Shown: positions 5,573 through 57,480 of the stretch, in pieces
Layout: every line of letters begins with the position of its first letter
Numbering within the stretch: the first letter of the stretch is position 1
NCBI GenBank assembly: GCA_001000675.1
Contig: LCHW01000001.1
Coordinates: forward strand, 218,294 to 282,293
Length of the DNA: 64,000 bases
Source of the DNA: Candidatus Wolfebacteria bacterium GW2011_GWE2_44_13
Lineage (GTDB): Bacteria > Patescibacteriota > Minisyncoccia > UBA6257 > UBA9933
Reading direction: 5' to 3'
Notes under the pieces: generated by a model
Seen by the model: only the letters and a program-made list of their open reading frames with translations
Told to the model about the DNA's origin: nothing
Databases searched by the model: none
Made by a program: the position numbers and the translations under genes

Positions 5573-6007
5573 TTGGTTCTCATCGCACTAATCGTTCTGC
5601 TTTGGGTTATTCCCTTATTTTCAGGCTCAGTTTTCTTCTCGAATGAAATAAATACGGTCGTCGGTCTATTCCTTTGTATATGCGGATTGGGCTTTGCCGT
5701 GTGGGCTCGACGTACGCTCGGGACTAATTGGAGTGCGAACCCGGTCGAAGTCAAAGCGAAACATGTGTTTATAACTACTGGCCCGTACCGAATAGTCAGA
5801 CATCCAATTTATACGGGTGTCATTTTTGCACTTGCGGGTACTTTCCTAGTAGATAATAGATGGCGCACGCTTCTGTTGTTTATTATAGTATCTATTGGTA
5901 TGGTGCTGCGTTCCAGATTGGAAGATGAGCTTATGGCGCGACAGTTTCCTCAAGAATATCCTGGATATAAAAAGAGGGTACCAGCTTTGATTCCGGGAGT
6001 ATTTTAA
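5573..6007 (+). CDS. isoprenylcysteine carboxyl methyltransferase (ICMT)/phospholipid methyltransferase family membrane protein
   Basis: ITTGPYRIVRHPIYTG motif with hydrophobic helices. Starts at a TTG, with an AGGAGG site 14 nt upstream. No in-frame ATG exists upstream. Confidence 0.65.
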   Translation: MVLIALIVLLWVIPLFSGSVFFSNEINTVVGLFLCICGLGFAVWARRTLGTNWSANPVEVKAKHVFITTGPYRIVRHPIYTGVIFALAGTFLVDNRWRTLLLFIIVSIGMVLRSRLEDELMARQFPQEYPGYKKRVPALIPGVF

Positions 6008-24330: not shown

Positions 24331-26064
24331 TTAGTCTATGATCACTACATGTGCTTGGGGAGGGGTGCTTTTTTCTTGCTCGGAAAGAACGTAGAAAATG
24401 TTTTTTGCGCGCTGCTTTTCTGGAGTAAACGAATCGGTTATAAACATAACCGTCTGCGTTGACATTGGTAGTCCGCGCACGTCTGTTCCTCCCGCCCGGA
24501 CGAACACATACTTAGGGGTTTCGATAGGAAGTTCGTTGAGCTCGTGTCCAATGTCGACATACTTTTGTGTAAATGCACCGAAGGTGTTTGGATCCTTTGC
24601 CCATTTATGAAAATAGATGAAATATGCTTCTGTAGGAAGGAGTACGAAGAGAATGACTGTAAATATTGTGACAAGTATCTCTTTTACATGTGACCACGTT
24701 GATTCAGGGTCAGCTCCTTTTGCAAACGCTACTAATTTTTCGTAGATCCAAATGCCTCCCGCGCCCGCAAGAATAAATACGGGAGGAATCATAAGAATGG
24801 CGCGTAGTGCATGTGGAATGCCTTCGTTTGAAATGACAACTGGAAGCATTGCTACTAATAGCCATGCAAGCGGGATGAGTCTTGAAAGCGGGGATGGACG
24901 TTCGACAGAAGAAGGAGGCGTCGTGGCATCTATTGGCGTATCTTCATTGAACGCCGTTCCTTTAAATAAATTAAGGAAGAACATCCACGCAACATACACT
25001 GCGGCAATAAATCCGCACAGGAACATGATACCTACTGGCCAGAACAATTCTGCGCGTCCTGCAAGGTTATGGCGCCAGTTCATATCTCCTTGTACATAGA
25101 ACATGCCAATGGTTTTCCCGACGTTCAGCACGAGTTCAACAATAGGATGCTCCATACTGAATATGGAAATCTGGCTCGTGCGACCAAGAAAATCTTCTGG
25201 AGTTGCGATAAAGTGCCACGCAAGGGGAAGTACTGCAAACAGTGCGCATACAACAAAGATGGTAAATGCACGGAGCAGTTCTTTGCGCGCGTCTTTCATA
25301 GCGATATACCAATACATAAACATGGCGACTGGTATGAGTGGCATGATGCGATAGGCAATATAACTATTGAATCCAAGCCCAAATATAAACCCAGCTGCAC
25401 CGGTGAATAACAACGTATAAAGATTCAACCCCCAATAGGTTTTTTCTTTTGGCATAGCAAAAACAGAGGGAGCTCCTAGCTCGAGCTTAACGGTGGTTGC
25501 TTGTTGGCGTGTCTTGAATTCGTCGAGCTTGCGCGCAATCATGAGCGTAAGATACGTGCCCCATGTCATAAAGAAGGGAGCCATGATTGCACGAAATCCG
25601 ATACGTGAAAAGTTGATATGCCAAAAGGATGTTGCAATAAGAAATGCGGCAAGAAGCGCAATCTTTTCGTGGCGCTGCAACGTTGTTTCAAATCCGTCTT
25701 CCTTGTGTGTCTTTCTTGCAGGGAGAAAGAGCTCTCGCGCGAGAAAATATACTCCAAGAACCGTAAAAATTCCAAAGAGTGCGCTTACTCCGCGGAGTGC
25801 TCCAGGTACATTACCAAACAGCGCAATTGAAATCGCTTGAATATTGATAAAGAATCCCTCGCGCCCATTATTCTCAGGATAAAATGTTTTGAATTGTCCT
25901 GTGGATAATGCTTCAAGTGCATTGTTGCCATTCATTGCCTCGTCGGGATAGAGCCCTGGAGGTGTTCCGTTAATATTGTAGAGCCTTAGGAAAGAGGCTA
26001 TAATAATAATACTGAATAGGAGTAATGCAGCTAACCGTTTTGGATTTGTAAATAAGGTTGCCAT
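24331..26064 (-). CDS. glycosyltransferase family 39/83 (PMT/ArnT-like) integral membrane protein
   Basis: At least 10 TM helices. The first extracytoplasmic loop carries a DE motif (LYPDEAMNG). The architecture resembles PMT/ArnT. Confidence 0.55.
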   Translation of the reverse strand: MATLFTNPKRLAALLLFSIIIIASFLRLYNINGTPPGLYPDEAMNGNNALEALSTGQFKTFYPENNGREGFFINIQAISIALFGNVPGALRGVSALFGIFTVLGVYFLARELFLPARKTHKEDGFETTLQRHEKIALLAAFLIATSFWHINFSRIGFRAIMAPFFMTWGTYLTLMIARKLDEFKTRQQATTVKLELGAPSVFAMPKEKTYWGLNLYTLLFTGAAGFIFGLGFNSYIAYRIMPLIPVAMFMYWYIAMKDARKELLRAFTIFVVCALFAVLPLAWHFIATPEDFLGRTSQISIFSMEHPIVELVLNVGKTIGMFYVQGDMNWRHNLAGRAELFWPVGIMFLCGFIAAVYVAWMFFLNLFKGTAFNEDTPIDATTPPSSVERPSPLSRLIPLAWLLVAMLPVVISNEGIPHALRAILMIPPVFILAGAGGIWIYEKLVAFAKGADPESTWSHVKEILVTIFTVILFVLLPTEAYFIYFHKWAKDPNTFGAFTQKYVDIGHELNELPIETPKYVFVRAGGTDVRGLPMSTQTVMFITDSFTPEKQRAKNIFYVLSEQEKSTPPQAHVVIID

Positions 26065-26677: not shown

Positions 26678-27091
26678 ATGGATAATCAGAATTTTGAAGC
26701 AGCAACACCAGAGACAAGCCAAATCGAATCGGATCTTAATCGTGTCAAGCAAGCTGTGCATGAACAAACAGGAGGAAGTGCAACGCCCGAAGTAACGGAG
26801 CGCGCGTTGGTGCGTCAGTCGTTGCAACCCATGGTTAATATAGCTAGTACTCCTGCTCCGACGCAGCAGACGCACGCGGCAGCGGATGACGCGATGCTCC
26901 CTGAATATCTAAAGGATGCTTCACCGGAAATAAAAGATCGTGTTGAGCGGCTTGTTGAAGATGCTTTTGCAAATGGCGTTGAGCACGCTGCTATTGCTGC
27001 GCAAGCATTTGGACCGTTTGTTGTAGATGCATTGCATGATGCGCTTTCGGATCGATTTTATGAGGAGTTGCAAAAACGAAAATTCGTCTAA
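26678..27091 (+). CDS. hypothetical protein
   Basis: ORF only. No motifs were recognised. Confidence 0.4.
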   Translation: MDNQNFEAATPETSQIESDLNRVKQAVHEQTGGSATPEVTERALVRQSLQPMVNIASTPAPTQQTHAAADDAMLPEYLKDASPEIKDRVERLVEDAFANGVEHAAIAAQAFGPFVVDALHDALSDRFYEELQKRKFV

Positions 27092-27122
27092 TATGCAACA
27101 CATGACACTGGCCGACTACTGT

Positions 27123-27203
27123 GTTGTGGGTCCCCATTACCTCAGTCGAAGCACTACTGTGCATCTTCCTCGCTAATGCTCCCACGCCTTGTATTCGACT
27201 CAG
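27123..27203 (+). promoter_or_regulatory. Conserved 5' element E1, upstream of the VirD4/TraD-like ATPase gene
   Basis: About 92% identical to 33418-33498. Both copies end exactly 39 bp before their downstream ATG. A terminal stem GTGGG/CCCAC can form. Confidence 0.55.
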
Positions 27204-27241
27204 TCTCATGTGTTGTATAGGTTTGTTAGTATCTTATTTAT

Positions 27242-29617
27242 ATGAATATATTTCTCATACTCCTTTCTATTGCCATTGCACTCCTTATTGTTATCGGTGT
27301 GCTGTATTTTTTTGTGCGACGAAAGGCGAATAGAGTGCGCATGCAACAAGCGCTTGATTTACACCTATTGTTGCTTCGCTTCCCGCGCATTCAGCGTGCT
27401 GATCAGGAAAAGAAGGACTTTAAAGATGAGATTAATCTTTCTGCGCAGTTGTACAGCACACTCCTTGGATTGAAAGTTCCGTTTGCGCTTGAAACTGCAG
27501 TACATCACGTGGGAGAAGAAATTCATTTTTATGTTGGCGTACCTAAGGGTGCGCTTGATCCAGTTCGTCGACAAATAGAGGGCTTGTTTAAAGATGTGCA
27601 AGTTGAGCCGGCTGACGATTACAATATATTTAATTCTACGGGTGTGAGTGCGGGTATGTATGTAAAACAGCATTATCCATACGCACTCCCTATCCGTACG
27701 TATCAAGAAGCGAATATCGATACATTCTCATCTATTCTCAGTGGATTTTCTAAGGTAAGTGAAATAGGTGAGGGAGCTGCATTGCAAGTTATCGTGCGCC
27801 CTGTTCCTGAATCTTCGAAAAAAACAGTGTTCAAAATGATTGGACAACTGCGACAAGGTGAAAAATTTGAGGACGTGCTTCGTGCTGATAGCGCATTGGG
27901 TGATATACAAAAAGCGCTCGTGGGTAAAAAAGAAGAAACCGTGGGAACTCCCGAGCAACCACGCACGGTGAATGAGGATGCCGTAAAGGCGCTCGAATCA
28001 AAGATTTCTAAGCCACTTGTATTTGCAAACGTGCGTGTTGTTACTTCTGCTATAAATACATTACAGGCAGAAGATATGTTAAGCGGTATTACGCATGGGT
28101 TTGCACAATTTGCCGCCCCTTTCCGACAAGAATTGCGCATTGCTAAGCCAAAACAATTACAAAAGTTTCTTCGGCAGTATTCGTTCCGCGAGTTTGACCA
28201 AGACACTGCTATTTGCTTGAACACAGAAGAAGTTGCGAGCTTATTTCATATGCCTACATCGTCACTCGAAGTTCCGCGTATTAAAATGTTGGAATCACGC
28301 GAATCGCCACCTCCAGAGAATTTGCCAAACGAGGGCACGCTTATCGGGGAGAGCTCTTTCCGTGGTGATGTGAAGAAAATATTTCTTACGCCACAAGACC
28401 GCATGCGCCATGTGTATGCCATTGGTCAAACGGGTACCGGTAAGTCTACCTTGCTTGTGCAGATGGCACTCGAAGATATTAAACAAGGCAAGGGTGTTTG
28501 TATTATCGATCCACACGGAGAGCTTGTTGATAAAACGCTGAGCCTCATCCCTGAACATCGCTATGATGATGTTATTGTGTTTGACCCAGCCGACATTGCA
28601 ACGCCGATGGGATTGAATATGCTCGAATACGATTTTAATAGACCTGAACAAAAGTCCTTTATTGTTGATGAGCTCTACAATATTATGGATAAGTTGTACG
28701 ACATGAAGACGTCGGGTGGTCCGATGTTTGAGTTGTATATGAAAAACGCTATTTTGTTGCTTATGGAAGATGCACGTAATGAGCCAGCAACAATCATGGA
28801 AATTCAACGGTTATTTACCGATGACGCGTTCCGTGAACGAAAGCTTGCGCGTATTCATAATCCTGTGGTTATTGATTTCTGGGAAAAGGAAGCTGCTAAA
28901 TCGACAGGAGAACATTCATTAGCAAACATGTCTTCCTATATTACGTCTAAGTTCAACGTGTTTACGACAAATGATTTTATGCGCCCGATTATCGGACAAA
29001 CGCAATCGTCGTTTAATTTTCGACAGGCAATGGATGAGGGGAAGATTTTGTTGGTGAGCTTGTCAAAAGGAAAAATCGGCGATTTTAACATGGGATTGCT
29101 TGGTATGATTATTGTTGGAAAAATATTGATGGCTGCATTGTCGCGTACGGATATTCCTGAGCATGAACGAAGGGAGTTTAATTTGTATCTTGACGAATTC
29201 CAAAATTTTTCTACGGATGCAATTTCTACGATATTTTCTGAAGCCCGTAAATATGCACTCAGCCTTACGGTTGCGCATCAATATGTAGGGCAGATGACAG
29301 ATAAGATAAAGGCGTCGGTGTTTGGTAACGTTGGATCAAAAATTATTCTTCGCGTTGGTATGGACGATGCAGAAGTGTTTGAAAAAGATCTTATGCCTAC
29401 GTTTACGAAAAATGATTTGGTAAACTTAAAAGCAGGACAGGCATATGCGAAGCCACTTATTAATGGGCAAGTAGTGCGGCCGTTTAACATACAGCTATTT
29501 AATGTGCAGTGGGGCGACCGAGGGCTTGTAGATAAATTGCGCGAGCTTTCTCGTTTGAAATATGGAAAGGATCGGGATAGTGTCGAGGGAGATATTTTGC
29601 GAAGATTACGATTATGA
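27242..29617 (+). CDS. TraD/TrwB/VirD4-like coupling-protein-type P-loop ATPase (T4SS DNA-transfer family) with an N-terminal TM anchor
   Basis: N-terminal TM. Walker A HVYAIGQTGTGKST, then GVCIIDPHGE and Walker B LYLDEFQNF. The 791-aa size fits. The exact subfamily is uncertain and HerA/FtsK-like alternatives are not excluded. Confidence 0.5.
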   Translation: MNIFLILLSIAIALLIVIGVLYFFVRRKANRVRMQQALDLHLLLLRFPRIQRADQEKKDFKDEINLSAQLYSTLLGLKVPFALETAVHHVGEEIHFYVGVPKGALDPVRRQIEGLFKDVQVEPADDYNIFNSTGVSAGMYVKQHYPYALPIRTYQEANIDTFSSILSGFSKVSEIGEGAALQVIVRPVPESSKKTVFKMIGQLRQGEKFEDVLRADSALGDIQKALVGKKEETVGTPEQPRTVNEDAVKALESKISKPLVFANVRVVTSAINTLQAEDMLSGITHGFAQFAAPFRQELRIAKPKQLQKFLRQYSFREFDQDTAICLNTEEVASLFHMPTSSLEVPRIKMLESRESPPPENLPNEGTLIGESSFRGDVKKIFLTPQDRMRHVYAIGQTGTGKSTLLVQMALEDIKQGKGVCIIDPHGELVDKTLSLIPEHRYDDVIVFDPADIATPMGLNMLEYDFNRPEQKSFIVDELYNIMDKLYDMKTSGGPMFELYMKNAILLLMEDARNEPATIMEIQRLFTDDAFRERKLARIHNPVVIDFWEKEAAKSTGEHSLANMSSYITSKFNVFTTNDFMRPIIGQTQSSFNFRQAMDEGKILLVSLSKGKIGDFNMGLLGMIIVGKILMAALSRTDIPEHERREFNLYLDEFQNFSTDAISTIFSEARKYALSLTVAHQYVGQMTDKIKASVFGNVGSKIILRVGMDDAEVFEKDLMPTFTKNDLVNLKAGQAYAKPLINGQVVRPFNIQLFNVQWGDRGLVDKLRELSRLKYGKDRDSVEGDILRRLRL

Positions 29618-29958
29618 TTGTGCCAAACATTATTGCAGACAAATATTTACGGGTAGTACTCGCTGTCAGCTTTGCACTACACAGTGTTATTACCGTACTG
29701 ATGTTAGTAAAGTTTTTGTCGCGACGCGAATCGATTGTGCTTCATTTTGATGTATATCGGGGGATCGATTTTGTGGGTGGGCGCGTTGACTTGATCGGGA
29801 TACTTTTTTCCGGATTTATTATGATTGCACTCAATTTTTTACTTGCCGATTTTCTTTATACACGCGATCGATTCTTTGCGTATGTGCTTTCTTTTGCGAG
29901 TCTGTTACTTGCAATACTGTTCGCCATTTTAATGGTGATTATTTACTCAATTAATTAA
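29614..29958 (+). CDS. small membrane protein, translationally coupled to the ATPase
   Basis: ATGA start/stop overlap with the ATPase gene. Three TM helices. Confidence 0.4.
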   Translation: MIVPNIIADKYLRVVLAVSFALHSVITVLMLVKFLSRRESIVLHFDVYRGIDFVGGRVDLIGILFSGFIMIALNFLLADFLYTRDRFFAYVLSFASLLLAILFAILMVIIYSIN

Positions 29959-29969
29959 TGCGCAAGCGA

Positions 29970-30731
29970 TTATGCCTTTGCAATAACGAGTGCAAGGATT
30001 TGCTTTGCCCCTGCTCGTTTTAACGTACGTGCCGCTTCTGAGAGGGTTGCTCCTGAGGTTGAAACATCATCTATTAAGATGATGTTTTTATTACGAACAG
30101 CATCGGGGCGAGGAATTGCAAACGCGCCATGCATACGTGCAAAGCGTTCGGCATGCGTTTTTTCTTTTGCCTGCGGGTCGTTATTAATGCATTTAACCAG
30201 CAACTCATCGTATGGAAAATGCATGGCATGGGCAAATGCTTGTGCAATATACGCCGATTGATTAAATCCTCGTGTATGCTCCTTGCTTGTGTGTAGGGGG
30301 ATAGGGACGATGATTGGATTGGTAGTGAATATGCGAGGTTGCGGATCGAGCCCTTGCGCATACGTAATAAGAAGAAGCGAAAGCGTTTTTGTGAGGGCGT
30401 GTACTTTTTCGTATTTGCATTGATGAATACAACTACGGACAATGGGGTCGCTGTACTGTGCTGCTGCGCCAAGGAGATAGGGGAATTGAGCAGACAATTT
30501 TTCACTATGATTACAGGTGCGCTTGTTGTTTGCGATGCGCGCGGTACAAATAGGGCATATGAGCGCACTATTTTTAATAATCGCCTGATAACATGGTTTA
30601 CAAATTGGTTCGACTCCGGAATCGAGATATACTTCGCACTGTGCGCAGAGCGGAGGGAAAAGAATGTCGAGTGCGATGCGCGACATGCGTGTACTGAGCG
30701 AAAAGAGATGGTTTAATTTTCCATTTTTCAT
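29970..30731 (-). CDS. comFC: ComF family protein (ComFC-like phosphoribosyltransferase with a double zinc ribbon)
   Basis: N-terminal CxxC...CxxC zinc ribbons and a C-terminal PRTase motif NIILIDDVSTSGATL. The start may lie at 30731 or 30773. Confidence 0.7.
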   Translation of the reverse strand: MKNGKLNHLFSLSTRMSRIALDILFPPLCAQCEVYLDSGVEPICKPCYQAIIKNSALICPICTARIANNKRTCNHSEKLSAQFPYLLGAAAQYSDPIVRSCIHQCKYEKVHALTKTLSLLLITYAQGLDPQPRIFTTNPIIVPIPLHTSKEHTRGFNQSAYIAQAFAHAMHFPYDELLVKCINNDPQAKEKTHAERFARMHGAFAIPRPDAVRNKNIILIDDVSTSGATLSEAARTLKRAGAKQILALVIAKA

Positions 30732-30789
30732 GATTCTATAGTATAGTATATGATATAGCGTTTTAGAACGCATTTATTTTATTGTCATT

Positions 30790-31869
30790 ATGTTCGGAAT
30801 GAAATTATTCGGCTCATCTTCATATCTTGGTGTCGATATCGGCACGACATCTATTAAAATTGTTGAGATAGGGAAGGGGAGTTCCGGCCCGGAATTACAA
30901 AATTACGGTATTTTAGAGAGCTATGGGCACTTGGAGCGCGTGAATAACGCTATTCAAACGAGCTCGCTTAAAATTATGGAAGCGGATACAATCCAGCTTC
31001 TTAAGACACTTATTGCACGTTCGAATTTTAAATCAAAAGAAGTCATCGCTTCCATTCCCTCTTTTGCTGTTTTCATTACGTTATTTGAGATACCGCAAAT
31101 GAAAGATGCTGACATTGCTAAAGCAATGCAGTTTCAAATTGGGCAATATATTCCACTTCCTATTACCGAGGTTTCTATCGATTGGCTTAAAGTGGGTGAA
31201 CGTCAAGATGAGCAGGGCTTTGTGAAAGAGCAAATATTACTCGTTTCTATTCCAAATGAAACTGTTGATAAGTATCGACGTATTTTTTCTGCGGCTGGAT
31301 TGAATTTGCGAGCCATTGAAATAGAAAGCTTGTCGTTGTTGCGCGCTATTTCGGATGCATCAATGCCTCCAACGCTGATTGTGGATATTGGTTCGCGTTC
31401 AACAAACATTGCCGTCGTTGATAAGGGTAACTTGCGCTATAACTATCAGACTGATATGTCGAGTGCAGGTATTACGCAGGCGTTGGCAGGAGGGCTTGGG
31501 GTAAAAATTCGGCGTGCGGAAAAATTAAAACGAGAGCGCGGAATTCTTGGTGGCTCTGAATCGGAGCTATCCACATTGATGATACCGTTTGTTGATGCTA
31601 TACTTAATGAAGTAAAGCGTGCAAAAATAAAGTATGAACAAAGTTTCGGCAACGTCATTACGCAAGTTATTCTTGTGGGTGGTGGCGCGAAGATGCCGGG
31701 GATTGTTCCGTATGCGCAGGAGCAGCTTGGACTTCCGGTTATGATTAGTAATCCGTTTCTTAAAATACATTATCCTCCGTCAATTGAGCCTATTGTTCGG
31801 GATCTTGGCCCAACATTTGCTACTGCTATCGGTCTTGGAATTAAAGAATTTACGGACGGCTCTCTTTAA
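30790..31869 (+). CDS. pilM: type IV pilus assembly protein PilM
   Basis: Actin-like ATPase fold (LGVDIGTTSIKIVEI...). It leads the pilM-N-O series. Confidence 0.8.
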   Translation: MFGMKLFGSSSYLGVDIGTTSIKIVEIGKGSSGPELQNYGILESYGHLERVNNAIQTSSLKIMEADTIQLLKTLIARSNFKSKEVIASIPSFAVFITLFEIPQMKDADIAKAMQFQIGQYIPLPITEVSIDWLKVGERQDEQGFVKEQILLVSIPNETVDKYRRIFSAAGLNLRAIEIESLSLLRAISDASMPPTLIVDIGSRSTNIAVVDKGNLRYNYQTDMSSAGITQALAGGLGVKIRRAEKLKRERGILGGSESELSTLMIPFVDAILNEVKRAKIKYEQSFGNVITQVILVGGGAKMPGIVPYAQEQLGLPVMISNPFLKIHYPPSIEPIVRDLGPTFATAIGLGIKEFTDGSL

Positions 31870-31946
31870 ACGGAGTTGTAAGATCGTATCGCACAAAATA
31901 ATTTCGCCTACCATTTGTATTACATAGCTCTTATCTCTTAATTATT

Positions 31947-32495
31947 ATGCCTTATACACAATCAGCCCTACAAACTGAATTATCACGACAGCGCGAAGCT
32001 GCTGCCGGATGGCCTTGGCGATTAATGACCCTATCGGTTATCGTACTTCTTGCGGTGGTTGCCGTATATCTGGGTATGCGTTTTGGGTTTGAAGAGGCGT
32101 ATTTAAAAGGGGCTCTAGCCGATGAAGAAGCTACGTATGCAGCGACGTTTAAATCGGTAAGTCCTGAAGATCAAAAAAGGGTTTTCGATTTCTATTCTCA
32201 ACTCAGTAATATTGATACGCTGTTGAAAAAGCAGGGGAAGGTTACTCCGTACGCTGTAATTATTGAGCAAAATACGCTTAACGCAATTACATTCTCGAAT
32301 CTAGATATTAAAACAAGCGATACTGCTATTGTCGCGGTTATTGTCGGCAGAACGGCAACATACTCATCGATTGTGCAACAGTTAGGGTTGTTTAAAGCTG
32401 CTCCTGATGTTTCTGATGTAAAGCTGCTTGGTGCTCGGTTTGTTAATCCGACCGATGGCATTAATTTTTCTATCCAGATAACCTTTGATCGATAA
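31947..32495 (+). CDS. pilN: PilN-like type IV pilus assembly protein
   Basis: Single N-terminal TM plus a periplasmic domain. Its position after pilM fits. Confidence 0.5.
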   Translation: MPYTQSALQTELSRQREAAAGWPWRLMTLSVIVLLAVVAVYLGMRFGFEEAYLKGALADEEATYAATFKSVSPEDQKRVFDFYSQLSNIDTLLKKQGKVTPYAVIIEQNTLNAITFSNLDIKTSDTAIVAVIVGRTATYSSIVQQLGLFKAAPDVSDVKLLGARFVNPTDGINFSIQITFDR

Positions 32496-32501
32496 TCCCT
32501 T

Positions 32502-33086
32502 ATGAAATATCTCTCAAAACGATTTGCTAGCATCCTCCTTTCATTTGCTTTTTTTGCGGCGTCACTTGTTGTGTATGCCAATTTAATTCAGCCGACCTAC
32601 GATAACATTAAGGTGGAGCAGGGGAAGCTTATTGCTGCGCAGCAAAAAAATAGCGAATATACGAATGTTTTCACACGCTTAAAACAAGTTTCTACTAATT
32701 TCCAACAATCACCGGAATTACAAAATAGGGTCTCGATGGCATTTCCACTTGATGCGAACGTTTCAGATTCAATGAATCAAATTTCCGCAGTTGCTTTAGC
32801 GAATGGACTCACTATTGCATCAATTGATATTACGAGTGCTCCTGTTATTCCGACTGTTACTAAAAAAGCTGGCGACATTTCCTTTATAAAAGGAACAGGC
32901 GTTCTTAAGAATGCTATTGTTGTAGCAGGAACATACGAAGAAATAAAAGCATTTTTGCAAGGCGTTGAAACGGGTGTGCGTATCGCAAATATTAAGCTTG
33001 TGCGACTCACTCGATCTGCAAATCCGGCTACGCCGGAAATAATTAACGCAAGCGTCGAAATAGAAACCTATTATCAGGCTAAATAA
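32502..33086 (+). CDS. pilO: PilO-like type IV pilus assembly protein
   Basis: N-terminal TM, a coiled coil and a periplasmic domain. Its position after pilN fits. Confidence 0.5.
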   Translation: MKYLSKRFASILLSFAFFAASLVVYANLIQPTYDNIKVEQGKLIAAQQKNSEYTNVFTRLKQVSTNFQQSPELQNRVSMAFPLDANVSDSMNQISAVALANGLTIASIDITSAPVIPTVTKKAGDISFIKGTGVLKNAIVVAGTYEEIKAFLQGVETGVRIANIKLVRLTRSANPATPEIINASVEIETYYQAK

Positions 33087-33095
33087 CTATTACTT

Positions 33096-33389
33096 ATGGC
33101 AATTGTACTTGAAGGAGAAAAAAAGAATATTGATTGGAGTTTTGCGCTCGGGACAGTGGTTGTAGTTGGTATCGTTGGAGCCTCTATAATCTATTTGTTT
33201 TTTGTGAGCCCAGAAACAGTGCAACAACTCACGACTCCTGAGCAACGCACGTTGAGCGAGTTTTCAAAAACTTCTTTTAAGCCTGAAGAAATTTTAAATA
33301 GTGCTGCGTTTCAGGAACTGCGAACTGTGGCGCCGCTTACGAGCCCGACGGAAGAGGAGGTGGGGAAAATAAACCCTTTCCTTCCTTAA
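33096..33389 (+). CDS. small single-TM protein, possibly a PilP-like accessory component
   Basis: 97 aa with one TM helix. It sits last in the pilMNO sub-cluster. Confidence 0.35.
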   Translation: MAIVLEGEKKNIDWSFALGTVVVVGIVGASIIYLFFVSPETVQQLTTPEQRTLSEFSKTSFKPEEILNSAAFQELRTVAPLTSPTEEEVGKINPFLP

Positions 33390-33417
33390 AATTTTCTACG
33401 GCTGGTGCACTCCTTCG

Positions 33418-33498
33418 TTGTGGGCCCCCATTACCTCGGTCGAAGCACTATCGTGCATCTTCCTCGCTAATGCTCCCACGTCTTGTATTGCACTCAAG
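33418..33498 (+). promoter_or_regulatory. Conserved 5' element E2, upstream of pilB
   Basis: A paralogous copy of 27123-27203, with identical 39-bp spacing to the start codon. Confidence 0.55.
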
Positions 33499-33536
33499 CG
33501 TAAAAAATTTCTCAACTTTATTTTCGAACGAACTTT

Positions 33537-35276
33537 ATGGACAACAAAACACTCATTGACGCATTAATTCAAGATGGGCTCCTCGGAGAAATCGAAGGGC
33601 GTAAGGTGCTGCAAGAAGCGGCGCTTGCGCGTCGGCAAGTAGATGAGTTGATTTACGAACAGCGTTTAGTTGATGAAGAACAGCTTGCCATGGAAAAGGG
33701 CAAGCTTTTGAATGTGCCCTATCGAAAAATAGATCCACAAGAAATTCTCGATGATACGCTTAAACTGTTCCCAGAAGAAACAGTGCGTAACTATAAAGTT
33801 ATTCCGATCAGTATTAAGGATGACATGTTAGTGGTGGGGATGATTAACCCAGATGATGCACAGGCCCAGGAGGCGCTTAAATTTATTGCAAAGCAGCGTC
33901 GATTAAATTTGGGAGCATATATTATTACTCAAGCATTGTGGGAGCTTGTTTTACGTCGTTATTCTCCGTATCGAAGTCTTATTGACGAAGCGGTGAAGGC
34001 GAGCACATCACTTGCATCGAAAAATACTGGACCAACACAAGTTGTGCGGCTCGAAGAAAATAAGGGAGCAAGTGCTGACGAAACGCCTATTATCCGTATT
34101 GTATCGACCACACTTAAAGAGGCAGTTTGGGAAAAGGCTTCGGATATCCACATAGAACCACAACGCAATCGTGGGCGTATTCGCTTTCGTATTGACGGTG
34201 AGTTGCGGGAAGTTTCTTCGTTTCCGCTTGTTCTGCACGCATCGATTGTTTCTCGTATTAAAATTCTTGCGAACTTAAAGATAGACGAAACGCGTATTCC
34301 GCAAGACGGACGTTTTCGAACCGTGCTCTTTGGGCGCGATATCGATTATCGTGTTGCTACGTTTCCAACTCCTGTAGGGGAGAAGGTTGTTATCCGTGTG
34401 CTTGACCCATCGACTGGTTTGAAAGGCCTTGAAGATCTTGGATTACGCGGTAAAAATTTACAAACCGTAAAAACAGGGATTGAAAAACCATACGGCGTTA
34501 TTTTGATTACTGGTCCTACGGGATCTGGAAAAAGTACGACACTGTATGCATTGATGCAATTGCTAAATAAAGAAGACATTAACATTGTTAGTCTTGAAGA
34601 TCCAGTTGAATATTACATGGATGGATTAAACCAATCGCAGGTAAAGCCTGAAATCGGATATGACTTCGCCTCTGGTTTGCGACAAATTCTTCGACAAGAT
34701 CCAGATGTTATCATGGTAGGAGAAATCCGCGATGAAGAAACTGCGGGGCTTACTATCCAGGCTGCGTTAACCGGACATATTGTGCTTTCCACATTACACA
34801 CGAACAATTCGGTTGGCGTTATTCCGCGTCTTATGGATATGAAGGTACAGCCGTTTCTTATTCCTGCAGCACTTAACATTATGCTTGCACAGCGATTAAT
34901 AACGCGTTTGTGCCAACAATGCCGTGTGAGTGACGTTGCGTCGCCACAAGTTACAGAAGTTATTAGCCGTGAACTCGCACAGCTATCTCCAGAAATTCGC
35001 AGTGCGTATCCTGCTCAAGGACCCTATTCAGTATTCCATTCTCCAGGATGTGAAGCGTGTAAGGGGAAAGGAGTTTCAGGGCGCCTCGCAGTATTTGAGG
35101 TTATGATCATGACTCCTGAATTGGAAAAGGTTATCAATGAAGGCGCAACCGAAGCCTCGATTCTTGCGGAAGCTCGCCGACAAGGTATGGTTACGATGCA
35201 CCAAGACGGTATTCTTAAGGCGCTTGAAGGTTTGGTTTCAATTGAAGAAGTTTTGCGAGAGACCGTTGAAATGTGA
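33537..35276 (+). CDS. pilB: type IV pilus assembly ATPase PilB (GspE family)
   Basis: N-terminal GSPII_E_N domain, Walker A GPTGSGKST, Asp/His boxes and the tetracysteine motif CxxC...CxxC. Confidence 0.85.
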   Translation: MDNKTLIDALIQDGLLGEIEGRKVLQEAALARRQVDELIYEQRLVDEEQLAMEKGKLLNVPYRKIDPQEILDDTLKLFPEETVRNYKVIPISIKDDMLVVGMINPDDAQAQEALKFIAKQRRLNLGAYIITQALWELVLRRYSPYRSLIDEAVKASTSLASKNTGPTQVVRLEENKGASADETPIIRIVSTTLKEAVWEKASDIHIEPQRNRGRIRFRIDGELREVSSFPLVLHASIVSRIKILANLKIDETRIPQDGRFRTVLFGRDIDYRVATFPTPVGEKVVIRVLDPSTGLKGLEDLGLRGKNLQTVKTGIEKPYGVILITGPTGSGKSTTLYALMQLLNKEDINIVSLEDPVEYYMDGLNQSQVKPEIGYDFASGLRQILRQDPDVIMVGEIRDEETAGLTIQAALTGHIVLSTLHTNNSVGVIPRLMDMKVQPFLIPAALNIMLAQRLITRLCQQCRVSDVASPQVTEVISRELAQLSPEIRSAYPAQGPYSVFHSPGCEACKGKGVSGRLAVFEVMIMTPELEKVINEGATEASILAEARRQGMVTMHQDGILKALEGLVSIEEVLRETVEM

Positions 35277-35362
35277 TAGAATGCATGTAATAGATTCCGT
35301 GTGGCACGATACAATATTTCGTTTAGGCCCATGCGACAATACACAATACATATATTATTTTT

Positions 35363-36436
35363 ATGGATTACAAACAACAGCTAAACGATTTACTTCTCGC
35401 TACCGCAAAACAAAATGCTTCCGATCTTCATATTGGTGTTGGTAAATATCCAATGCTTCGTATTGATGGATTGTTGATTCCGCTCCAAAAAGATGGAGTG
35501 GTTACTCCTGAAGCTGCAACTGGCTTAATTACTGAATTGCTAACGCCACAGCAACTTGAAGTTGTTGATAAAAATCGAGAAATAGATTTTTCGTATACCT
35601 ACGAAGATAAGGCGCGATTTCGTGTAAACGTTTTTTACCAACGGGGTTTTATGGCTGCTGCGTTGCGCTTGATTCCTGCGGATGCGCGAACTATTGAAGA
35701 TCTTGGCTTGCCACCTATTTTGCATGATTTCACGAAACTGTCACAAGGGTTTGTGTTAGTGGTAGGACCTGCAGGACATGGAAAATCTACGACACTCGCT
35801 GCGCTTATTGATGAAATCAACCATGCGCGCACGGAGCATATTATTACTATCGAAGATCCTGTTGAGTATATGTTTGTGCAGGATAAATCAATTGTTTCTC
35901 AACGTGAAGTTTTGAGTGACACGCCCGATTTTCATACCGCGCTGAAGTCGCTACTTCGACAAGATCCTGACGTTGTTATGATTGGAGAAATGCGCGATAA
36001 AGAATCTATTGCCATTGCTATGACTGCGGCAGAAACAGGACATCTTGTATTTTCTACATTACACACAAACTCCGCAGCACAAACCATCGACCGTATCATT
36101 GATAGTTTCCCGCCTGATCAACAGAGCCAAGTTGCTTCACAGTTAGCCGCTACGTTAGTAGGTATTGTTTCGCAGCGATTAGTTCCACGTGTTGATGGAG
36201 GACGCGTTCCTGCGTGTGAAATCATGATTGTGAACTCAGCTATCCGGAACCTTATTCGCGAGCGAAAGGCGTATCAGATCGACCTTGTCATCGAAACCTC
36301 TATGCAGGAAGGTATGACAACCTTAAACAGGGCGCTTTCTACATTGGTGCGTAGTAGGCAGATAGCACTGGAAGAAGCCGAACTATACTCATTGAATGCA
36401 AGTGAGTTGCGCATACTTATCGAGCGTGTAACGTGA
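35363..36436 (+). CDS. pilT: twitching-motility/retraction ATPase PilT
   Basis: About 357 aa, lacking the N-terminal GSPII_E_N extension. Walker A GPAGHGKST and the PilT His box. Confidence 0.85.
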   Translation: MDYKQQLNDLLLATAKQNASDLHIGVGKYPMLRIDGLLIPLQKDGVVTPEAATGLITELLTPQQLEVVDKNREIDFSYTYEDKARFRVNVFYQRGFMAAALRLIPADARTIEDLGLPPILHDFTKLSQGFVLVVGPAGHGKSTTLAALIDEINHARTEHIITIEDPVEYMFVQDKSIVSQREVLSDTPDFHTALKSLLRQDPDVVMIGEMRDKESIAIAMTAAETGHLVFSTLHTNSAAQTIDRIIDSFPPDQQSQVASQLAATLVGIVSQRLVPRVDGGRVPACEIMIVNSAIRNLIRERKAYQIDLVIETSMQEGMTTLNRALSTLVRSRQIALEEAELYSLNASELRILIERVT

Positions 36437-36557
36437 GAAAGCTCGTAAGCTCGTAAGAAAAGAAGCTTGTAAGCAAATACAGACAGAGGTGGCGCGCCGC
36501 GTACTTCACTCACTGCATGCGTTTTACAGGAGGGAATTTAGTTGGAAAATCATACTC

Positions 36558-37769
36558 ATGAAATTTAAATACCAAGCAAGAAATAAAGACGGGGAACTGC
36601 AGGTTGGGTTCGTCGAGTCATATTCGCAAAACGGTGCGGCGGATGTTTTGGTATCACATGGCCTATATGTATTGAGTCTCGAAAATGAATCAAAGGATAA
36701 TTTCTTTGATAAGTTTTTGGCCATGTTTAAGCATGTTTCGTTGACCGATCTCATGATCTTTACGCGACAATTTGCAACGCTTATGGAGGCAAAGGTTTCC
36801 CTTGGAGACTCTATGAAAAATCTCCAAAAGCAAACGCGTAGTGCGATGATGAAAGAGGTAATTTATGAAATCGGTACGGATGTTGATAGCGGCTTGTCGT
36901 TATCGCAGGCACTTGAGCGACAAAAAGACGTTTTTTCTGAATTCTATGTCAGCATGATTCGATCCGCGGAAATAACAGGCCGGCTCGAAGAGGCTATTAT
37001 TTATCTTGCCGAATATATTGAAAAGCAGAAGCTGTGGCGTTCCCGCATTATCAACGCATTGATTTATCCGGCAATTCTTGTGGCCATGTTTCTTGGTATT
37101 GTGGTACTTATGGTCACAATGATCTTGCCGAATATTAAGCCAATCTTAATAGAAGCGGGTGATCTTCCTTGGTACACCGATGTGGTGCTTAACGGAGGTG
37201 ATTTTATTATTGCGTGGTGGTGGATTGCTATTATTGTTATCATTCCTGCAGTCATGTTTTTTCTTGAATATATCCGCAGTGATGAGGGAAAGGTTGTTGT
37301 TGATGAGGTGTTGTTGCGAACGCCGGTGTTTGGGTCGCTTTTTTCAAAAATGTATATCGCACGCTTTGCGGAGTCGCTCGGCATTCTTGTGAAGGGCGGT
37401 ATTCCTATTGCGCAAGCACTCGAAATTACGTCGCGTTCAATTGGGAGTAGCGTGTTTCAAGATATTCTCCATGATGTAAGTGATCGAGTTCGAGGAGGAG
37501 AGCTGCTTTCTGCTGCTCTTGAACGCTATGAGTACTATTTCCCTTCGCTGGTGAGTCAGATGATTGCTATTGGTGAAACAACAGGGCGACTTGAAGAATT
37601 GTTAGGACGTATTGCTATTTTCTATACCCGTGACGTTGATGATATGATGAGTCGGCTTGGTGAGTTGGTGCAGCCACTTATCATCGCAATCATTGGTGTG
37701 TTTGTTGGGTTCTTGTTTGCTTCTATCCTTGTTCCGATATATAATTTAGTTAAGTCGTTTGGCGGATAG
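36558..37769 (+). CDS. pilC: type IV pilus platform protein PilC (GspF family)
   Basis: Two T2SSF repeats with three TM segments. Start at MKFKYQ. Confidence 0.8.
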   Translation: MKFKYQARNKDGELQVGFVESYSQNGAADVLVSHGLYVLSLENESKDNFFDKFLAMFKHVSLTDLMIFTRQFATLMEAKVSLGDSMKNLQKQTRSAMMKEVIYEIGTDVDSGLSLSQALERQKDVFSEFYVSMIRSAEITGRLEEAIIYLAEYIEKQKLWRSRIINALIYPAILVAMFLGIVVLMVTMILPNIKPILIEAGDLPWYTDVVLNGGDFIIAWWWIAIIVIIPAVMFFLEYIRSDEGKVVVDEVLLRTPVFGSLFSKMYIARFAESLGILVKGGIPIAQALEITSRSIGSSVFQDILHDVSDRVRGGELLSAALERYEYYFPSLVSQMIAIGETTGRLEELLGRIAIFYTRDVDDMMSRLGELVQPLIIAIIGVFVGFLFASILVPIYNLVKSFGG

Positions 37770-37818
37770 TCCAAATGTATTTAATAGATATATTTAAAAT
37801 TAAAAAAAATAATCGTTT

Positions 37819-38268
37819 ATGAAATCACAGCTTTCTCAAAAAGGCAGCGCCTTGAGCCTGTCGAAAGGTTTTACACTCGTCGAAATGTTGATCGTTATTG
37901 CGATCATCGCAATTCTCGCATCTGTTTCTTTGGTCAGCGTTAGTGGCGTGCGTCAGTCTGCTCGCGATACAAAGCGTGTGTCCGATATCAACAAGATTCA
38001 GCAACAGCTTGAAGTATACTATTCACGAACTGGGAAGTATCCAACTGCTATCACTGATATTGAGGATTTTATTAATACAAAAGATCCGATTGGGGAATTA
38101 TATGAATATAGTGTTTATAATGGCGATCAGAGCTATGTCGTCGGTATTATGTTGGAAGGGGGAAGCTCGGCAACTGAAGAATCGAACGAAATAGACACTC
38201 TTCCTTCTGGAGCTGCACTTAGTAGTGTAGATTGTAACAATACCCTTGGTTTCTGCGTTGGTAACTAA
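37819..38268 (+). CDS. pilA: type IV pilin (major pilin candidate) with a class III prepilin signal
   Basis: The leader ends KG|FTLVEMLIVIAIIAILA (N-methylation motif with Glu5). Confidence 0.7.
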   Translation: MKSQLSQKGSALSLSKGFTLVEMLIVIAIIAILASVSLVSVSGVRQSARDTKRVSDINKIQQQLEVYYSRTGKYPTAITDIEDFINTKDPIGELYEYSVYNGDQSYVVGIMLEGGSSATEESNEIDTLPSGAALSSVDCNNTLGFCVGN

Positions 38269-38285
38269 TATTTATTTTATATACC

Positions 38286-39188
38286 GTGGATTACTTCCTG
38301 TATCTTTGTTTAGCCGTTTTCGGCCTAATCTTTGGAAGCTTTCTCAACGTTGTAACTATTCGATATAACCCCGACAAGGGGTTTTCGAATATTTATTCCT
38401 TGGGCGGGCGCTCCCATTGCCCTCATTGTCACAAGCAACTTACGTGGTACGAGCTTGTGCCTGTTTTTAGTTTTCTCTTTTTACTTGGCAAGTGTCGCCA
38501 TTGTGGGCATCGTATATCGTTTCAATATCCTGTTGTTGAATTATTGACATCGGCAATTTTTGTTACTGTTCCTTTATACGTTGCACATTTTTCGCGTATG
38601 TTTTTCTGGAGCGCTGATCTTTCGTACGGCTCATGGTTATTTTCCGCGCTCGCTGCCCTGTGGACGGCTGTGTTTGTACTATTTCTTATTCTCGCAGTCA
38701 TTGATTTGAAGCACATGATTATTCCTGATTCGATTAATATTGCGTTGGCATTTATTGGAGTCGCTATTGCCGGAGTAACACAATGGCTACATGGATTCGA
38801 TGCTATTCACGGATCATTTTTGCGTCATTACGCAATGATTTTCGGGTTGCGTGAATCTATTTGGACGAACCATCTATTCGCTGCATGTATTGGACTCCTA
38901 TTTTTTGGAAGTATTATCGTGTTGAGTAAAGGGCGTGCTATGGGGTGGGGCGATTTTAAATTAGCGGGTGCACTGGGCCTTATCTTTGGGTGGCCAGATA
39001 TCGTGCTTGTCCTAATGTTCTCGTTTATTATTGGCTCGATTATTTCTATTGGTCTTATGTTGCGTGGTCGCAAGACCATGAAAGATGCGGTTCCGTTTGG
39101 GCCGTTTTTGGTGTTAGGGGCAATAACTGTTTTTTTCTTTGGATTTCAATTGATGTCCCTATATTTTGACCTGTTCGGTGTGGTATAA
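38286..39188 (+). CDS. pilD: prepilin peptidase PilD (A24 family)
   Basis: N-terminal tetracysteine Zn motif (CPHC...CRHC) and a DiS_P_DiS peptidase core with the catalytic Asp residues. Confidence 0.8.
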   Translation: MDYFLYLCLAVFGLIFGSFLNVVTIRYNPDKGFSNIYSLGGRSHCPHCHKQLTWYELVPVFSFLFLLGKCRHCGHRISFQYPVVELLTSAIFVTVPLYVAHFSRMFFWSADLSYGSWLFSALAALWTAVFVLFLILAVIDLKHMIIPDSINIALAFIGVAIAGVTQWLHGFDAIHGSFLRHYAMIFGLRESIWTNHLFAACIGLLFFGSIIVLSKGRAMGWGDFKLAGALGLIFGWPDIVLVLMFSFIIGSIISIGLMLRGRKTMKDAVPFGPFLVLGAITVFFFGFQLMSLYFDLFGVV

Positions 39189-39195
39189 TGGATGC

Positions 39196-39780
39196 ATGGT
39201 ATTATTCGTCAAGCAATATATTCGAAAGAGAAAATCTCACAGCGATGGGGGGTTTACGCTTATCGAGATGACGATTGTAATTGGCCTTGTTGTGACACTA
39301 TCTATAGCCGCTACTGTTTTTAATAAATCAATTGCGCAACAAATTCTTGTTTCGCGAGAGCATGCAAAGGTAGTCGCTTTTTTTGTTCGAGCACGTTCTG
39401 CCGGACTTACAATTCCTAAAACTGATACTACCATTGAGCTTGTTTGTGCGTATGGTGTGCATATTGATGCCGCAACGCGCGCGATAACATTATTTAAAGA
39501 TTTAGGTACGCTTGGCGGAGCATGTGATTCAGCGGATCATCTATATACGATGGATGCCGAAAAAATAGACCAGACTATTTTAGACCCATTGGTATCTGTA
39601 ACGGCTAGCAATATTACAAATATCGTATTTATCCCTCCTTTTGGTGACGTTATTATTTCTGACGGAGGATTAGAGTATAGTTCGGCTACGGTTACGGTTT
39701 CGGGTGTTGTAACAAATCTTTCTCGTGGCGTGAAAGTAAATACGTTTGGGCAAATTACTGAATTTACACCGATACCATGA
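39196..39780 (+). CDS. minor pilin/pseudopilin with a prepilin signal
   Basis: Signal ...DGG|FTLIEMTIV. ATG at 39196. Confidence 0.55.
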   Translation: MVLFVKQYIRKRKSHSDGGFTLIEMTIVIGLVVTLSIAATVFNKSIAQQILVSREHAKVVAFFVRARSAGLTIPKTDTTIELVCAYGVHIDAATRAITLFKDLGTLGGACDSADHLYTMDAEKIDQTILDPLVSVTASNITNIVFIPPFGDVIISDGGLEYSSATVTVSGVVTNLSRGVKVNTFGQITEFTPIP

Positions 39781-40283
39781 AGCAACGACATATTAAAAAA
39801 ACAAGCGGATTTTTGCTTATCGAAGCCATGGTTGCTATGAGTGTGCTACTCACGAGCGTAATGGGTGTTTTTATATTAATGTCACAATCAATTAAACTGA
39901 CGCGCACCTTGAACGATCAATATGTCGCAACGTATCTTGCGGGAGAAGGAATTGAGATTGCAAAGAATATTCTTGATGCAAGCGTTGTTGCTGACCCTGC
40001 GGCATGGAATGTTAACAATAACTTTCATCAGAATGGATGTTATGCGCTTGATTATGCTAGTAATGTGCTTGCCGATTCGTGCTCGGATATGCCACTGAGC
40101 TTTAATGGAACGAACTACGGATACTCGGTTGGGGGAGAAACGAGTTCGTTTGTGCGAAAAGTTAACCTTGCCTTAGTTATGGACGGCTCTACGCAAATAG
40201 GTGTTCGGGTAACGTCTACTGTTACGTGGGCAGGAGGAACGCGAACATTTGCACTGGAAGATGTATTTTATGCATGGCTCTAA
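39777..40283 (+). CDS. minor pilin/pseudopilin (PilV-like)
   Basis: Signal ...TSG|FLLIEAMVAM. Its start overlaps the previous stop by 4 bp. Confidence 0.55.
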   Translation: MKQRHIKKTSGFLLIEAMVAMSVLLTSVMGVFILMSQSIKLTRTLNDQYVATYLAGEGIEIAKNILDASVVADPAAWNVNNNFHQNGCYALDYASNVLADSCSDMPLSFNGTNYGYSVGGETSSFVRKVNLALVMDGSTQIGVRVTSTVTWAGGTRTFALEDVFYAWL

Positions 40284-40288
40284 TTGAT

Positions 40289-40954
40289 ATGAACAGCAAT
40301 AAAAACAAACAATTACATACCGTGCGTAGGGAGGGCTTTACGCTCGTAGAGATGATTGTTGCCTTTGGCATCTTTACTATTTTTATCACGGTCGCCGCAG
40401 GAAGTTTTGTGCGGTCGGTGCGCATTCAGCGTGTATCGTTGCAGCTTATGGCTATTAACGACAACATGGCAATTACGATGGAACAAATGATGCGTGAGAT
40501 GCGTGTCGGGTATAATTTTTGTACGGCAGAGTCTATCCCTAATACGCTAAGCGCAACTGTGCAATCGCAATGTGCTTTCATGATCCCCGGGCAGGAAATT
40601 CAATTTTTTAAAAAGGGCGATGTTCCTGTTCGGTATCGAAGAACTGCATCAGGGAGTATTCAAAAAGGTGTTGGAGTAGCGGAGGACGAGCCAATTGATG
40701 TATGTGCGGAAGGAGAGTCTGTCGACGGAATTTGTTACCGAACGATTACCGCAGAAAATACCGATGTTATGGGGGCTAATTTTCAAGTATTGCATAATGA
40801 TGTTGAGATTGGATTGCTGTATCCGCCCCGTATTGTATTAAGCTTTTCAATTACAAGTACTGACCCATTAGTAAAAACAATGACTTCCCCAATCACTATC
40901 CAAACGACAATTAGTGCGCGTTGCGGAAAGCAATCGTGTCCTGCGGATAACTAA
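40289..40954 (+). CDS. minor pilin/pseudopilin (PilW-like)
   Basis: Signal ...REG|FTLVEMIVAFG. ATG at 40289. Confidence 0.55.
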   Translation: MNSNKNKQLHTVRREGFTLVEMIVAFGIFTIFITVAAGSFVRSVRIQRVSLQLMAINDNMAITMEQMMREMRVGYNFCTAESIPNTLSATVQSQCAFMIPGQEIQFFKKGDVPVRYRRTASGSIQKGVGVAEDEPIDVCAEGESVDGICYRTITAENTDVMGANFQVLHNDVEIGLLYPPRIVLSFSITSTDPLVKTMTSPITIQTTISARCGKQSCPADN

Positions 40955-40979
40955 ATGACAGATATAGTAATGCGTAACC

Positions 40980-41384
40980 ATGAAATTATCCCACTCAAAA
41001 TTTAAGAATCAGCGAGGACAGGCTATGATTTTGACCGTGCTCGTACTTTCGAGTATTGTGCTTTCTCTCTCTGCTATTGGCGGCTATTTAATGATGGTTC
41101 GATTACGAGTAAGTACTGATATCGGCAACACGATGCGCGCAATTTATATTGCAGATGCGGGGCTTGGATGCGAAGCATACAATCATTTTAAAAATGCGGA
41201 TGCTCCCGGGTTTTGCGCTCCTGGCACTGAACGAAATACATTTACGTTTGACGGAACGGTTGCGGATGCACCAAGCTTTTATCACGAAACAGAAACAATT
41301 TCTGCTGGTGTAGATTCCCGTATCAACGCAAAAGGGTATGCACGAACAGCAAGTCGCTCGTTACATCTCGAGTTCGGGTTTTAA
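40980..41384 (+). CDS. PilX-like minor pilin
   Basis: PilX N-terminal-like segment QRGQAMILTVLVLSSIVLSL. Confidence 0.45.
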   Translation: MKLSHSKFKNQRGQAMILTVLVLSSIVLSLSAIGGYLMMVRLRVSTDIGNTMRAIYIADAGLGCEAYNHFKNADAPGFCAPGTERNTFTFDGTVADAPSFYHETETISAGVDSRINAKGYARTASRSLHLEFGF

Positions 41385-57449: not shown

Positions 57450-57480
57450 TTAAGAATGCATTTTGTCAACAAATCGTTGC

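Follow-up and report, generated by a model that had tools for sequence, protein, structure and literature searches.

Patescibacteria account for a sizeable part of bacterial diversity, and they live in dependence on other cells. The stretch of DNA analysed here (the window, 64 kb), which comes from a Patescibacteria (Parcubacteria/Wolfebacteria-like) genome, raises the question of what such a cell does with a 791-residue P-loop ATPase encoded at the head of a type IV pilus locus, next to comFC. A preliminary description of this locus had seen in the ATPase the DNA-translocating motor of a DNA-uptake machine. The analysis leads elsewhere. The gene is ordinary for its phylum, being an orphan chromosomal ATPase of the type IV coupling protein (T4CP) family, of a class already reported, and its truly conserved partner is a small soluble protein, hyp137, encoded directly upstream. 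We tentatively propose that the gene encodes a chromosomal, vertically inherited T4CP of the VirD4/TraG/TrwB family that may act with hyp137 on a translocon of the kind seen in type IV secretion systems (T4SSs), encoded elsewhere in the genome.

Architecture and family of the ATPase

The ATPase, its parts, and its upstream neighbour occupy the following positions in the window:

27242-29617, + strand: T4CP-family ATPase, 791 amino acids (aa), identified from the list of open reading frames (ORFs), Pfam, NCBIfam, a structure model, and homologues
27248..27304, + strand: single N-terminal transmembrane (TM) helix, residues 3-21 (hydropathy 3.34; helix at residues 3-38 in the AlphaFold2 (AF2) model)
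27347..28366, + strand: N-domain, residues ~36-375, Pfam DUF8128, with a fold like that of the VirB4 N-terminal domain (NTD)
28379..29506, + strand: RecA-like nucleotide-binding domain with an inserted all-alpha domain (helices ~468-600)
28424-28447, + strand: Walker A motif, GQTGTGKS
29183-29200, + strand: Walker B motif, LYLDEF
26678..27091, + strand: hyp137, a 137-aa soluble protein of no known family, traced with a non-drifting hidden Markov model (HMM) from short homologues

All motifs by which the protein had first been recognised (HVYAIGQTGTGKST, VCIIDPHGE, and DEFQNF) are found in the translation, and both Walker motifs of the RecA-like domain are intact. The P-loop (G395-K401) and D651-E652-F653 are invariant across the 75 homologues that were aligned, and the catalytic motifs are likewise invariant over thousands of chromosomal homologues. 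An identical protein, ACD_81C00087G0005, is known from an uncultured bacterium, and proteins of Candidatus Wolfebacteria share 84% identity with it. Hydropathy agrees with the membrane anchoring described earlier, with one TM helix at the N terminus, and the positively charged flank that follows this helix predicts that the remainder of the protein is cytoplasmic. In the AF2 monomer model, the helices of the all-alpha insertion lie at residues 468-600; the structural neighbours of the model are VirB4, TrwB, and HerA, and the arrangement of an N-domain followed by a C-terminal ATPase domain is that of the VirB4 fold. A literature search on DUF8128 found nothing.

The original assignment of the protein to a TraD/VirD4-like family stands. 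Two Pfam models of T4CPs score above their gathering thresholds (TrwB_AAD_bind, 26.0 vs 20.5, and T4SS-DNA_transf, 36 vs 20.1), and homologues are found in conjugation clusters, as described below. Among the other family models that had been suggested for comparison, DUF87 (Pfam) matches residues 388-461 only.

TrwB of R388, VirD4, DotL, and Cag-beta are T4CPs, which usually have two TM helices. The ATPase of the window differs from them in having one such helix, with none in its fused relatives, as well as in the ~340 extra residues with the fold of the VirB4 N-domain that separate the helix from the ATPase domain. Its identity to these proteins is only ~16-18%, and no relaxase or T4SS gene lies nearby.

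Two other identities were compared. The FtsK motor domain is not matched by the protein, and an FtsK-like reading was rejected. From VirB4 itself, or TrwK, the assembly ATPase of T4SSs, the protein differs in three respects. The VirB4 sequence models in Pfam (CagE_TrbE_VirB, AAA_10, and TraC_F_IV) give zero matches, whereas VirB4_plasma (17.8 vs a cut-off of 590) and the TraC-F-type model (14.4 vs 567) stay far below threshold, the VirB4 match reaching the P-loop only; VirB3, VirB6, and VirB8 are not encoded alongside it; and its Streptomyces homologue is a separate gene adjoining a genuine VirB4-like gene.

As a side observation, phrog_5156, a PHROGs family of unknown function, matches the ATPase over its full length with 227 bits (residues 88-788 against positions 84-807 of the 824 in the profile), so that the two-domain ATPase is also catalogued among phage or prophage proteins.

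A conserved and often fused partner

Neighbourhoods were compared in 80 loci, one per GTDB species, all from Patescibacteria and with 39-57% identity to the ATPase, in which the proteins of the window were sought among the locus ORFs by BLASTP and iterated HMMs. The HMM for hyp137 was built from members of at most 220 aa only, which kept fused proteins out and the model from drifting; a word-indexed homologue search had reached 39 close relatives and no further. Together with a clustering of all ORFs neighbouring the ATPase, this HMM singled out hyp137 as the partner. A separate hyp137 gene is present in 42 of the 80 relatives and lies directly upstream of the ATPase in 41 of them, with gaps from -130 to +238 nt, the exception being L040, where the sole match is found 2 kb downstream of the ATPase. 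In another 27 loci (L032, L036, L038, L041, L043, L044, L046, L049-L051, L053, L058, L060, L061, L063-L065, L068-L075, L077, and L079) hyp137 is fused in frame to the N terminus of the ATPase, yielding proteins of 908-969 aa. It is undetected in the remaining 11, six of which are cut at a contig end.

In the fusions hyp137 takes the place of the TM helix, and the fused enzyme is predicted from hydropathy to be soluble. Since the helix is absent from these forms, the partner domain, and not membrane anchoring, is the constant of the family. No match to hyp137 was found in Pfam, PADLOC, PHROG, or, by profile, in the PDB. The protein might serve as an adaptor or regulator of the ATPase to which many lineages have fused it.

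Homologues outside Patescibacteria

A tblastn search of plasmids with the ATPase yielded 432 records, including 174 from Bacillus and 101 from Streptomyces, and others from haloarchaea and Sulfolobus. In 31 of the records the match extends over 80% or more of the query, and the best span residues 70/92-750. The homology is full-length and includes the N-domain, reaching 28% identity over residues 70-750 (E 7e-57) in one plasmid match and 24% over residues 92-752 (E 9e-39) in the B. subtilis homologue; the two-domain layout is not peculiar to Patescibacteria.

The surroundings of these homologues are those of conjugation. Next downstream of the B. subtilis plasmid homologue WP_121549396.1 (annotated as 'DUF87 domain-containing protein') are a gene of the replication-relaxation family, TcpE, a VirB4-like ATPase, and genes for conjugal transfer. 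The cluster of Streptomyces sp. BHT-5-2 has the order PrgI (VirB3-like), VirB4-like ATPase, homologue, NlpC/P60+SLT hydrolase. In the Halomontanus plasmid NZ_CP135526.1 (L087, 7791-12036), the DUF8128-like N-domain and the ATPase, which are joined in the protein of the window, are encoded by two adjacent, overlapping genes next to a conjugal transfer protein; the haloarchaeal homologue bears the name 'TraM recognition domain-containing protein'. This haloarchaeal arrangement is a split version of the single patescibacterial protein. Because the homologues lie inside monoderm and archaeal conjugation clusters, the assignment to the coupling-protein family is correct. Whereas these proteins in the T4CP position have a relaxase, VirB3, VirB4, and a hydrolase of the cell wall for neighbours, the gene of the window is orphaned among housekeeping genes and paired with hyp137.

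Two further explanations can be weighed against these data. The first, that the protein is a defence or DNA-repair ATPase of the HerA/DptH/MADS type, is very improbable in spite of the place of HerA among the structural neighbours of the model. The N-domain matches the VirB4 NTD and not the HAS-barrel of HerA, the nearest homologues beyond the phylum sit in conjugation clusters, and no NurA, Dnd, Sir2, or MADS partner genes were found in the window or in the relatives; moreover, in contrast to defence islands, this gene is single-copy-like, keeps its synteny, and has been inherited vertically. The second, that the gene is the remnant of an integrated conjugative element, could draw on the plasmid homologues and on the full-length phrog_5156 match, although we hold it to be least probable of all. 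Its flanks are housekeeping genes in conserved order, GC content is uniform over the window, no integrase, relaxase, or T4SS gene (VirB4 included) is present in the 64 kb, and the catalytic motifs have stayed invariant in chromosomal homologues.

Orphan coupling proteins of the phylum and a possible link to a secretion system

According to a survey of Patescibacteria (Quinonero-Coronel et al. 2025, PMC12102498), 5,713 VirD4-type homologues occur in 2,918 of 3,035 genomes, so that almost every genome holds such orphan genes; just 148 of them lie near virB4, which itself is found in 2,417 genomes. The gene of the window, T4CP-like, chromosomal, and far from virB4, belongs to this same class. As a separate observation, a 496-aa paralogue without the DUF8128 N-domain is encoded in locus L075 at 4390-5880, 3.7 kb upstream of the full-length ATPase gene; this fits the published figure for the phylum of approximately two T4CP-like genes in each genome.

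In S. epibionticum ML1, of the one genetically tractable species, Wang et al. 2023 (PMC10633639) found that the T4SS is essential, comEC, comF, and dprA are dispensable, and the T4SS cluster has no recognisable coupling protein. The supplementary transposon-sequencing (Tn-seq) table of that paper lists SEML1_0141, a 139-aa hypothetical protein (GD/ES/ES), 12 nt upstream of SEML1_0142, a 1019-aa TraM-recognition ATPase (ES/ES/ES), as well as a second, non-essential T4CP-like paralogue, SEML1_0293 (921 aa, PF10412); in the main text these genes go unmentioned. The SEML1_0141/0142 pair shares the layout of hyp137 and the ATPase, with a small upstream gene, a short gap, and then the ATPase.

New to this class are the VirB4-like N-domain and the conserved, often fused, small partner. 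Neither these features nor the fusion is described in the consulted parts of PMC12102498 and PMC10633639, which give counts and Tn-seq calls. The orphans can now be defined more sharply as T4CPs of the monoderm conjugation lineage that carry this N-domain and have an obligate small partner, and the scored-essential SEML1_0141/0142 pair, together with its non-essential paralogue, constitutes a directly testable set.

For the reading proposed at the outset, the following mechanism can be put forward by homology. The ATPase would most likely form a ring at the cytoplasmic face of the membrane and would use ATP to recruit a macromolecular substrate, or to feed it, into a translocon of the T4SS type whose genes lie elsewhere in the genome. 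The analysis shows the fold, the motifs, the family, the adjacency and fusion of the partner, and the lack of com/pilus synteny, whereas ring assembly, the substrate, translocation, and cooperation with a T4SS are inferred. Should the SEML1_0141/0142 pair be the missing coupling unit of the essential T4SS, or else a competence motor, either outcome would clarify how ultrasmall bacteria exchange macromolecules with their hosts.

Several observations weigh against this proposal. No gene for VirB4, VirB3/PrgI, TcpE, or a relaxase was found within 10 kb of the ATPase in any of the 80 relatives, just as T4SS and relaxase genes are absent from the window, so that the link to a T4SS is one of homology only. 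The equivalog cut-offs of NCBIfam (TraD, conju_CD1115) are far from reached (54.8 vs 250, 31.4 vs 366, and 20.8 vs 647), and by these scores the ATPase is a family-level relative and no equivalog. A membrane helix is generally counted as a T4CP feature; the single one present here is missing, by hydropathy, from the fused forms in 27 of the 80 relatives. The gene of the window may be orthologous to the non-essential SEML1_0293 and not to the essential SEML1_0142. Finally, the presence of T4CP-like genes in more genomes than VirB4 (2,918 and 2,417 in PMC12102498) leaves room for a role independent of T4SSs.

Such a role is the substance of a second reading, to which we give a lower, though appreciable, likelihood. 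The hyp137-ATPase pair would be an exapted housekeeping translocase that retains only the fold of its conjugative ancestor and serves an essential step of macromolecule handling, such as moving protein or nucleic acid out of or into the cell via another channel, or DNA processing. Consistent with it are the near-universal occurrence of the family, the soluble fused forms that lack a membrane anchor, the absence of T4SS genes around the ATPase in all 85 loci considered (the 80 and five more distant ones), and the position of the fused-type genes near that end of the ribosomal-protein cluster where secY-adk-map lie (in 12 loci map is one of the first four genes upstream, and in 11 ndk is the next gene downstream). 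Exaptation was also left open by the authors of PMC12102498. On the other hand, according to the same source, the T4CP gene frequently lies far from virB4 in genuine systems as well. The neighbourhoods offer no alternative partner system, only heterogeneous housekeeping genes, and the VirB4-like N-domain seen in the model suggests docking to a T4SS platform.

Synteny with comFC and the pilus operon

The genes around the ATPase that had given rise to the proposal of a DNA-uptake motor are the following:

29614..29958, + strand: 114-aa ORF with three TM segments, overlapping the stop codon of the ATPase (ATGA)
29970..30773, - strand: comFC (ComF/GntX-like), 267 aa, zinc ribbon and phosphoribosyltransferase (Pfam, NCBIfam)
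30790..41384, + strand: type IV pilus operon with pilM, pilN-like gene, pilO, 97-aa ORF, pilB, pilT, pilC, pilin, pilD, and minor pilins (Pfam, ORFs)
24331..26064, - strand: PMT_2-like GT-C glycosyltransferase, 577 aa (PMT_2 called in homologues)

The local gene order is as first described. The ATGA overlap is present at 29614-29617 (context cgattATGAttgtg), hydropathy gives three TM segments in the 114-aa ORF, and this ORF and comFC converge with 11 nt between their stops, comFC in turn being divergent from pilM. PilM, PilO, PilB, PilT, PilC, pilin, and PilD are confirmed by Pfam. The 267-aa protein is ComF-like, with DZR_2 and Pribosyltran domains; its scores for TIGR00201 (87 bits) and GntX (102 bits) are both under the equivalog cut-offs. 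The 114-aa ORF has no family match in Pfam, NCBIfam, PADLOC, or PHROGs. It is conserved in L081, L084, and L001, and the comparison with L084 (48 synonymous and 26 non-synonymous codon differences) indicates a real gene, although a lineage-restricted one, with homologues in 3-4 of the 80 loci and adjoining the ATPase only in L001.

Genus-level relatives (84% identity) keep the full order, i.e., PMT_2 (- strand), bPH_2, the hypothetical gene, ATPase, small ORF, comFC (- strand), and pilM onwards, except that in one of these genomes a 130-nt gap and an extra 97-aa ORF replace the ATGA overlap. Beyond the closest relatives, the com/pilus synteny of the ATPase is not conserved. A comFC gene lies no more than 10 kb from the ATPase in three of the 80 loci (L001, L046, and L064), pilB/T/C are near it in one, and pilM in four. 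In the five more distant relatives, whose N-domains are 25-31% identical, neither com nor pilus genes occur within 8 kb. At least 5 kb of downstream flank is available in 51 of the 80 loci and at least 5 kb of upstream flank in 52, so that the missing com and pilus genes are not artefacts of truncation; about 1.5 co-locations would be expected by chance in genomes of 0.6-1 Mb, by our estimate. The conserved synteny on which the earlier proposal depended is therefore lacking, and the neighbourhood, being confined to the closest relatives, does not support the assignment of the ATPase as the motor of an uptake machine. The statement that this configuration had been reported for bacteria of the candidate phyla radiation (CPR) could not be confirmed either; the nearest published statements, in PMC12102498, concern orphan T4CP homologues generally and the occurrence of comF near virB4 in class ABY1.

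ComFA is the DEAD-box motor of Gram-positive competence and the partner of ComFC. A T4CP-type ATPase might have been recruited in its place, as a cytoplasmic motor that pulls DNA through ComEC together with ComFC and is co-regulated with the pilus. This we consider improbable, but it has points in its favour besides the gene order in the window and its close relatives. Locus L064, of the fused type and with 41% identity, repeats the order ATPase, comFC (- strand), pilM, and in L046 comFC is 8 kb away. The family descends from DNA-transfer coupling proteins, and among the neighbours of distant homologues dnaX, UDG, xseAB, and a 5'-3' exonuclease appear repeatedly. Relaxases are mostly absent in Patescibacteria and comF, recG, and radA lie near virB4/T4SS loci in class ABY1 (PMC12102498), the core com components across CPR phyla are given as ComEC, DprA, and ComFC, with ComFA not named among them, and the ML1 paralogue SEML1_0293 is non-essential, as are the com genes (PMC10633639).

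Against such a motor, comFC is near in only three of the 80 loci, with about 1.5 co-locations expected by chance, the small membrane ORF is lineage-specific, and conservation of the ATPase extends further and is stronger than that of the com genes supposed to go with it. With ComFA it has in common a P-loop and, in this lineage, the place next to comFC, and nothing else; it belongs to another fold family and does not have the DEAD-box helicase fold (Pfam DEAD gives 17 bits vs a cut-off of 26, at the P-loop only). If orthologous to the essential ML1 pair, it could not serve competence alone, because comEC is dispensable there (PMC10633639). The more specific version, in which a conjugation-type ATPase and its small partner were exapted as the import motor of ComEC/ComFC and the gene order in Wolfebacteria is a surviving trace of this, we regard as slightly less probable still. 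For the coupling protein acting with hyp137, the neighbourhood of the 3-TM ORF, comFC, and the pilus operon would be a local arrangement of Wolfebacteria and no functional module.

A tighter and better conserved link between com and pilus genes than the one proposed for the ATPase is the divergent comFC-pilM pair, which recurs as a unit in L001, L046, L064, and L081-L084. It spans 29970-31869 in the window, 20543-22325 in L046, and 4181-6033 in L064, the latter two from distant Paceibacteria lineages. Other recurrent neighbours of the ATPase are GtrA, Ndk, DnaX, a beta-CASP RNase, and PMT_2-type glycosyltransferases, a PMT_2-like gene lying upstream of the hyp137-ATPase pair in 23 of the 80 relatives.

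The repeated hairpin element

A repeat upstream of both the ATPase and pilB (E1/E2) had been taken as a cis-element common to the two genes. Its copies in the window are as follows:

27092..27219, + strand: hairpin element, copy 1, ~125 nt, between hyp137 and the ATPase
33390..33510, + strand: hairpin element, copy 2, upstream of pilB
57460-57580: weak third copy, after gyrB (match 57478-57565)

The repeat is real, with 86% identity over 95 nt between 27108-27202 and 33402-33496, and the 64 kb contain two strong copies against an expectation of 0. Each copy folds into a long hairpin, and the fold z-scores on the + strand are -4.9 for copy 1 and -2.9 for copy 2. Over five copies, which include those of L081 (16915-17072) and L084 (19245-19400), compensatory changes are seen at 28 of 43 base pairs, and a U-G wobble on the coding (+) strand is invariant.

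The regulatory part of the claim fared worse, as the element is no conserved signal of the ATPase and its site varies even among close relatives. It is upstream of pilB in L081 and L082 and between pilT and pilC in L084, and none of L081-L084 has a copy ahead of the ATPase, the gap between the hypothetical gene and the ATPase there being 3 or 69 nt. No copies were found in the 80 species-level loci, and a degenerate pattern scan of metagenome contigs returned just the region upstream of pilB of the same species. Promoter and terminator scans gave results no better than shuffled sequences. In this genome the hairpin has the look of an element inserted between two genes that are normally transcribed together, and not that of a shared regulon signal. 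Rfam holds no family for it at gathering or permissive thresholds (the best being rncO, E 0.16), and it may be a lineage-specific structured RNA or an element similar to repetitive extragenic palindromes or miniature inverted-repeat transposable elements (REP/MITE-like).

Other genes of the window

The other genes of the window are of a housekeeping character (gyrB, leuS, a MacB-type ABC system, a Na+/H+ exchanger, and HtrA), and its base composition is even throughout. Two of the encoded proteins have unusual domain combinations. In leucyl-tRNA synthetase (41638-44463) the editing domain is closely preceded by an ASCH domain (Pfam PF04266, residues 244-344), and in a 384-aa protein (11419-12573) a CARDB domain occurs together with a serine-protease-inhibitor domain of the Kazal type.

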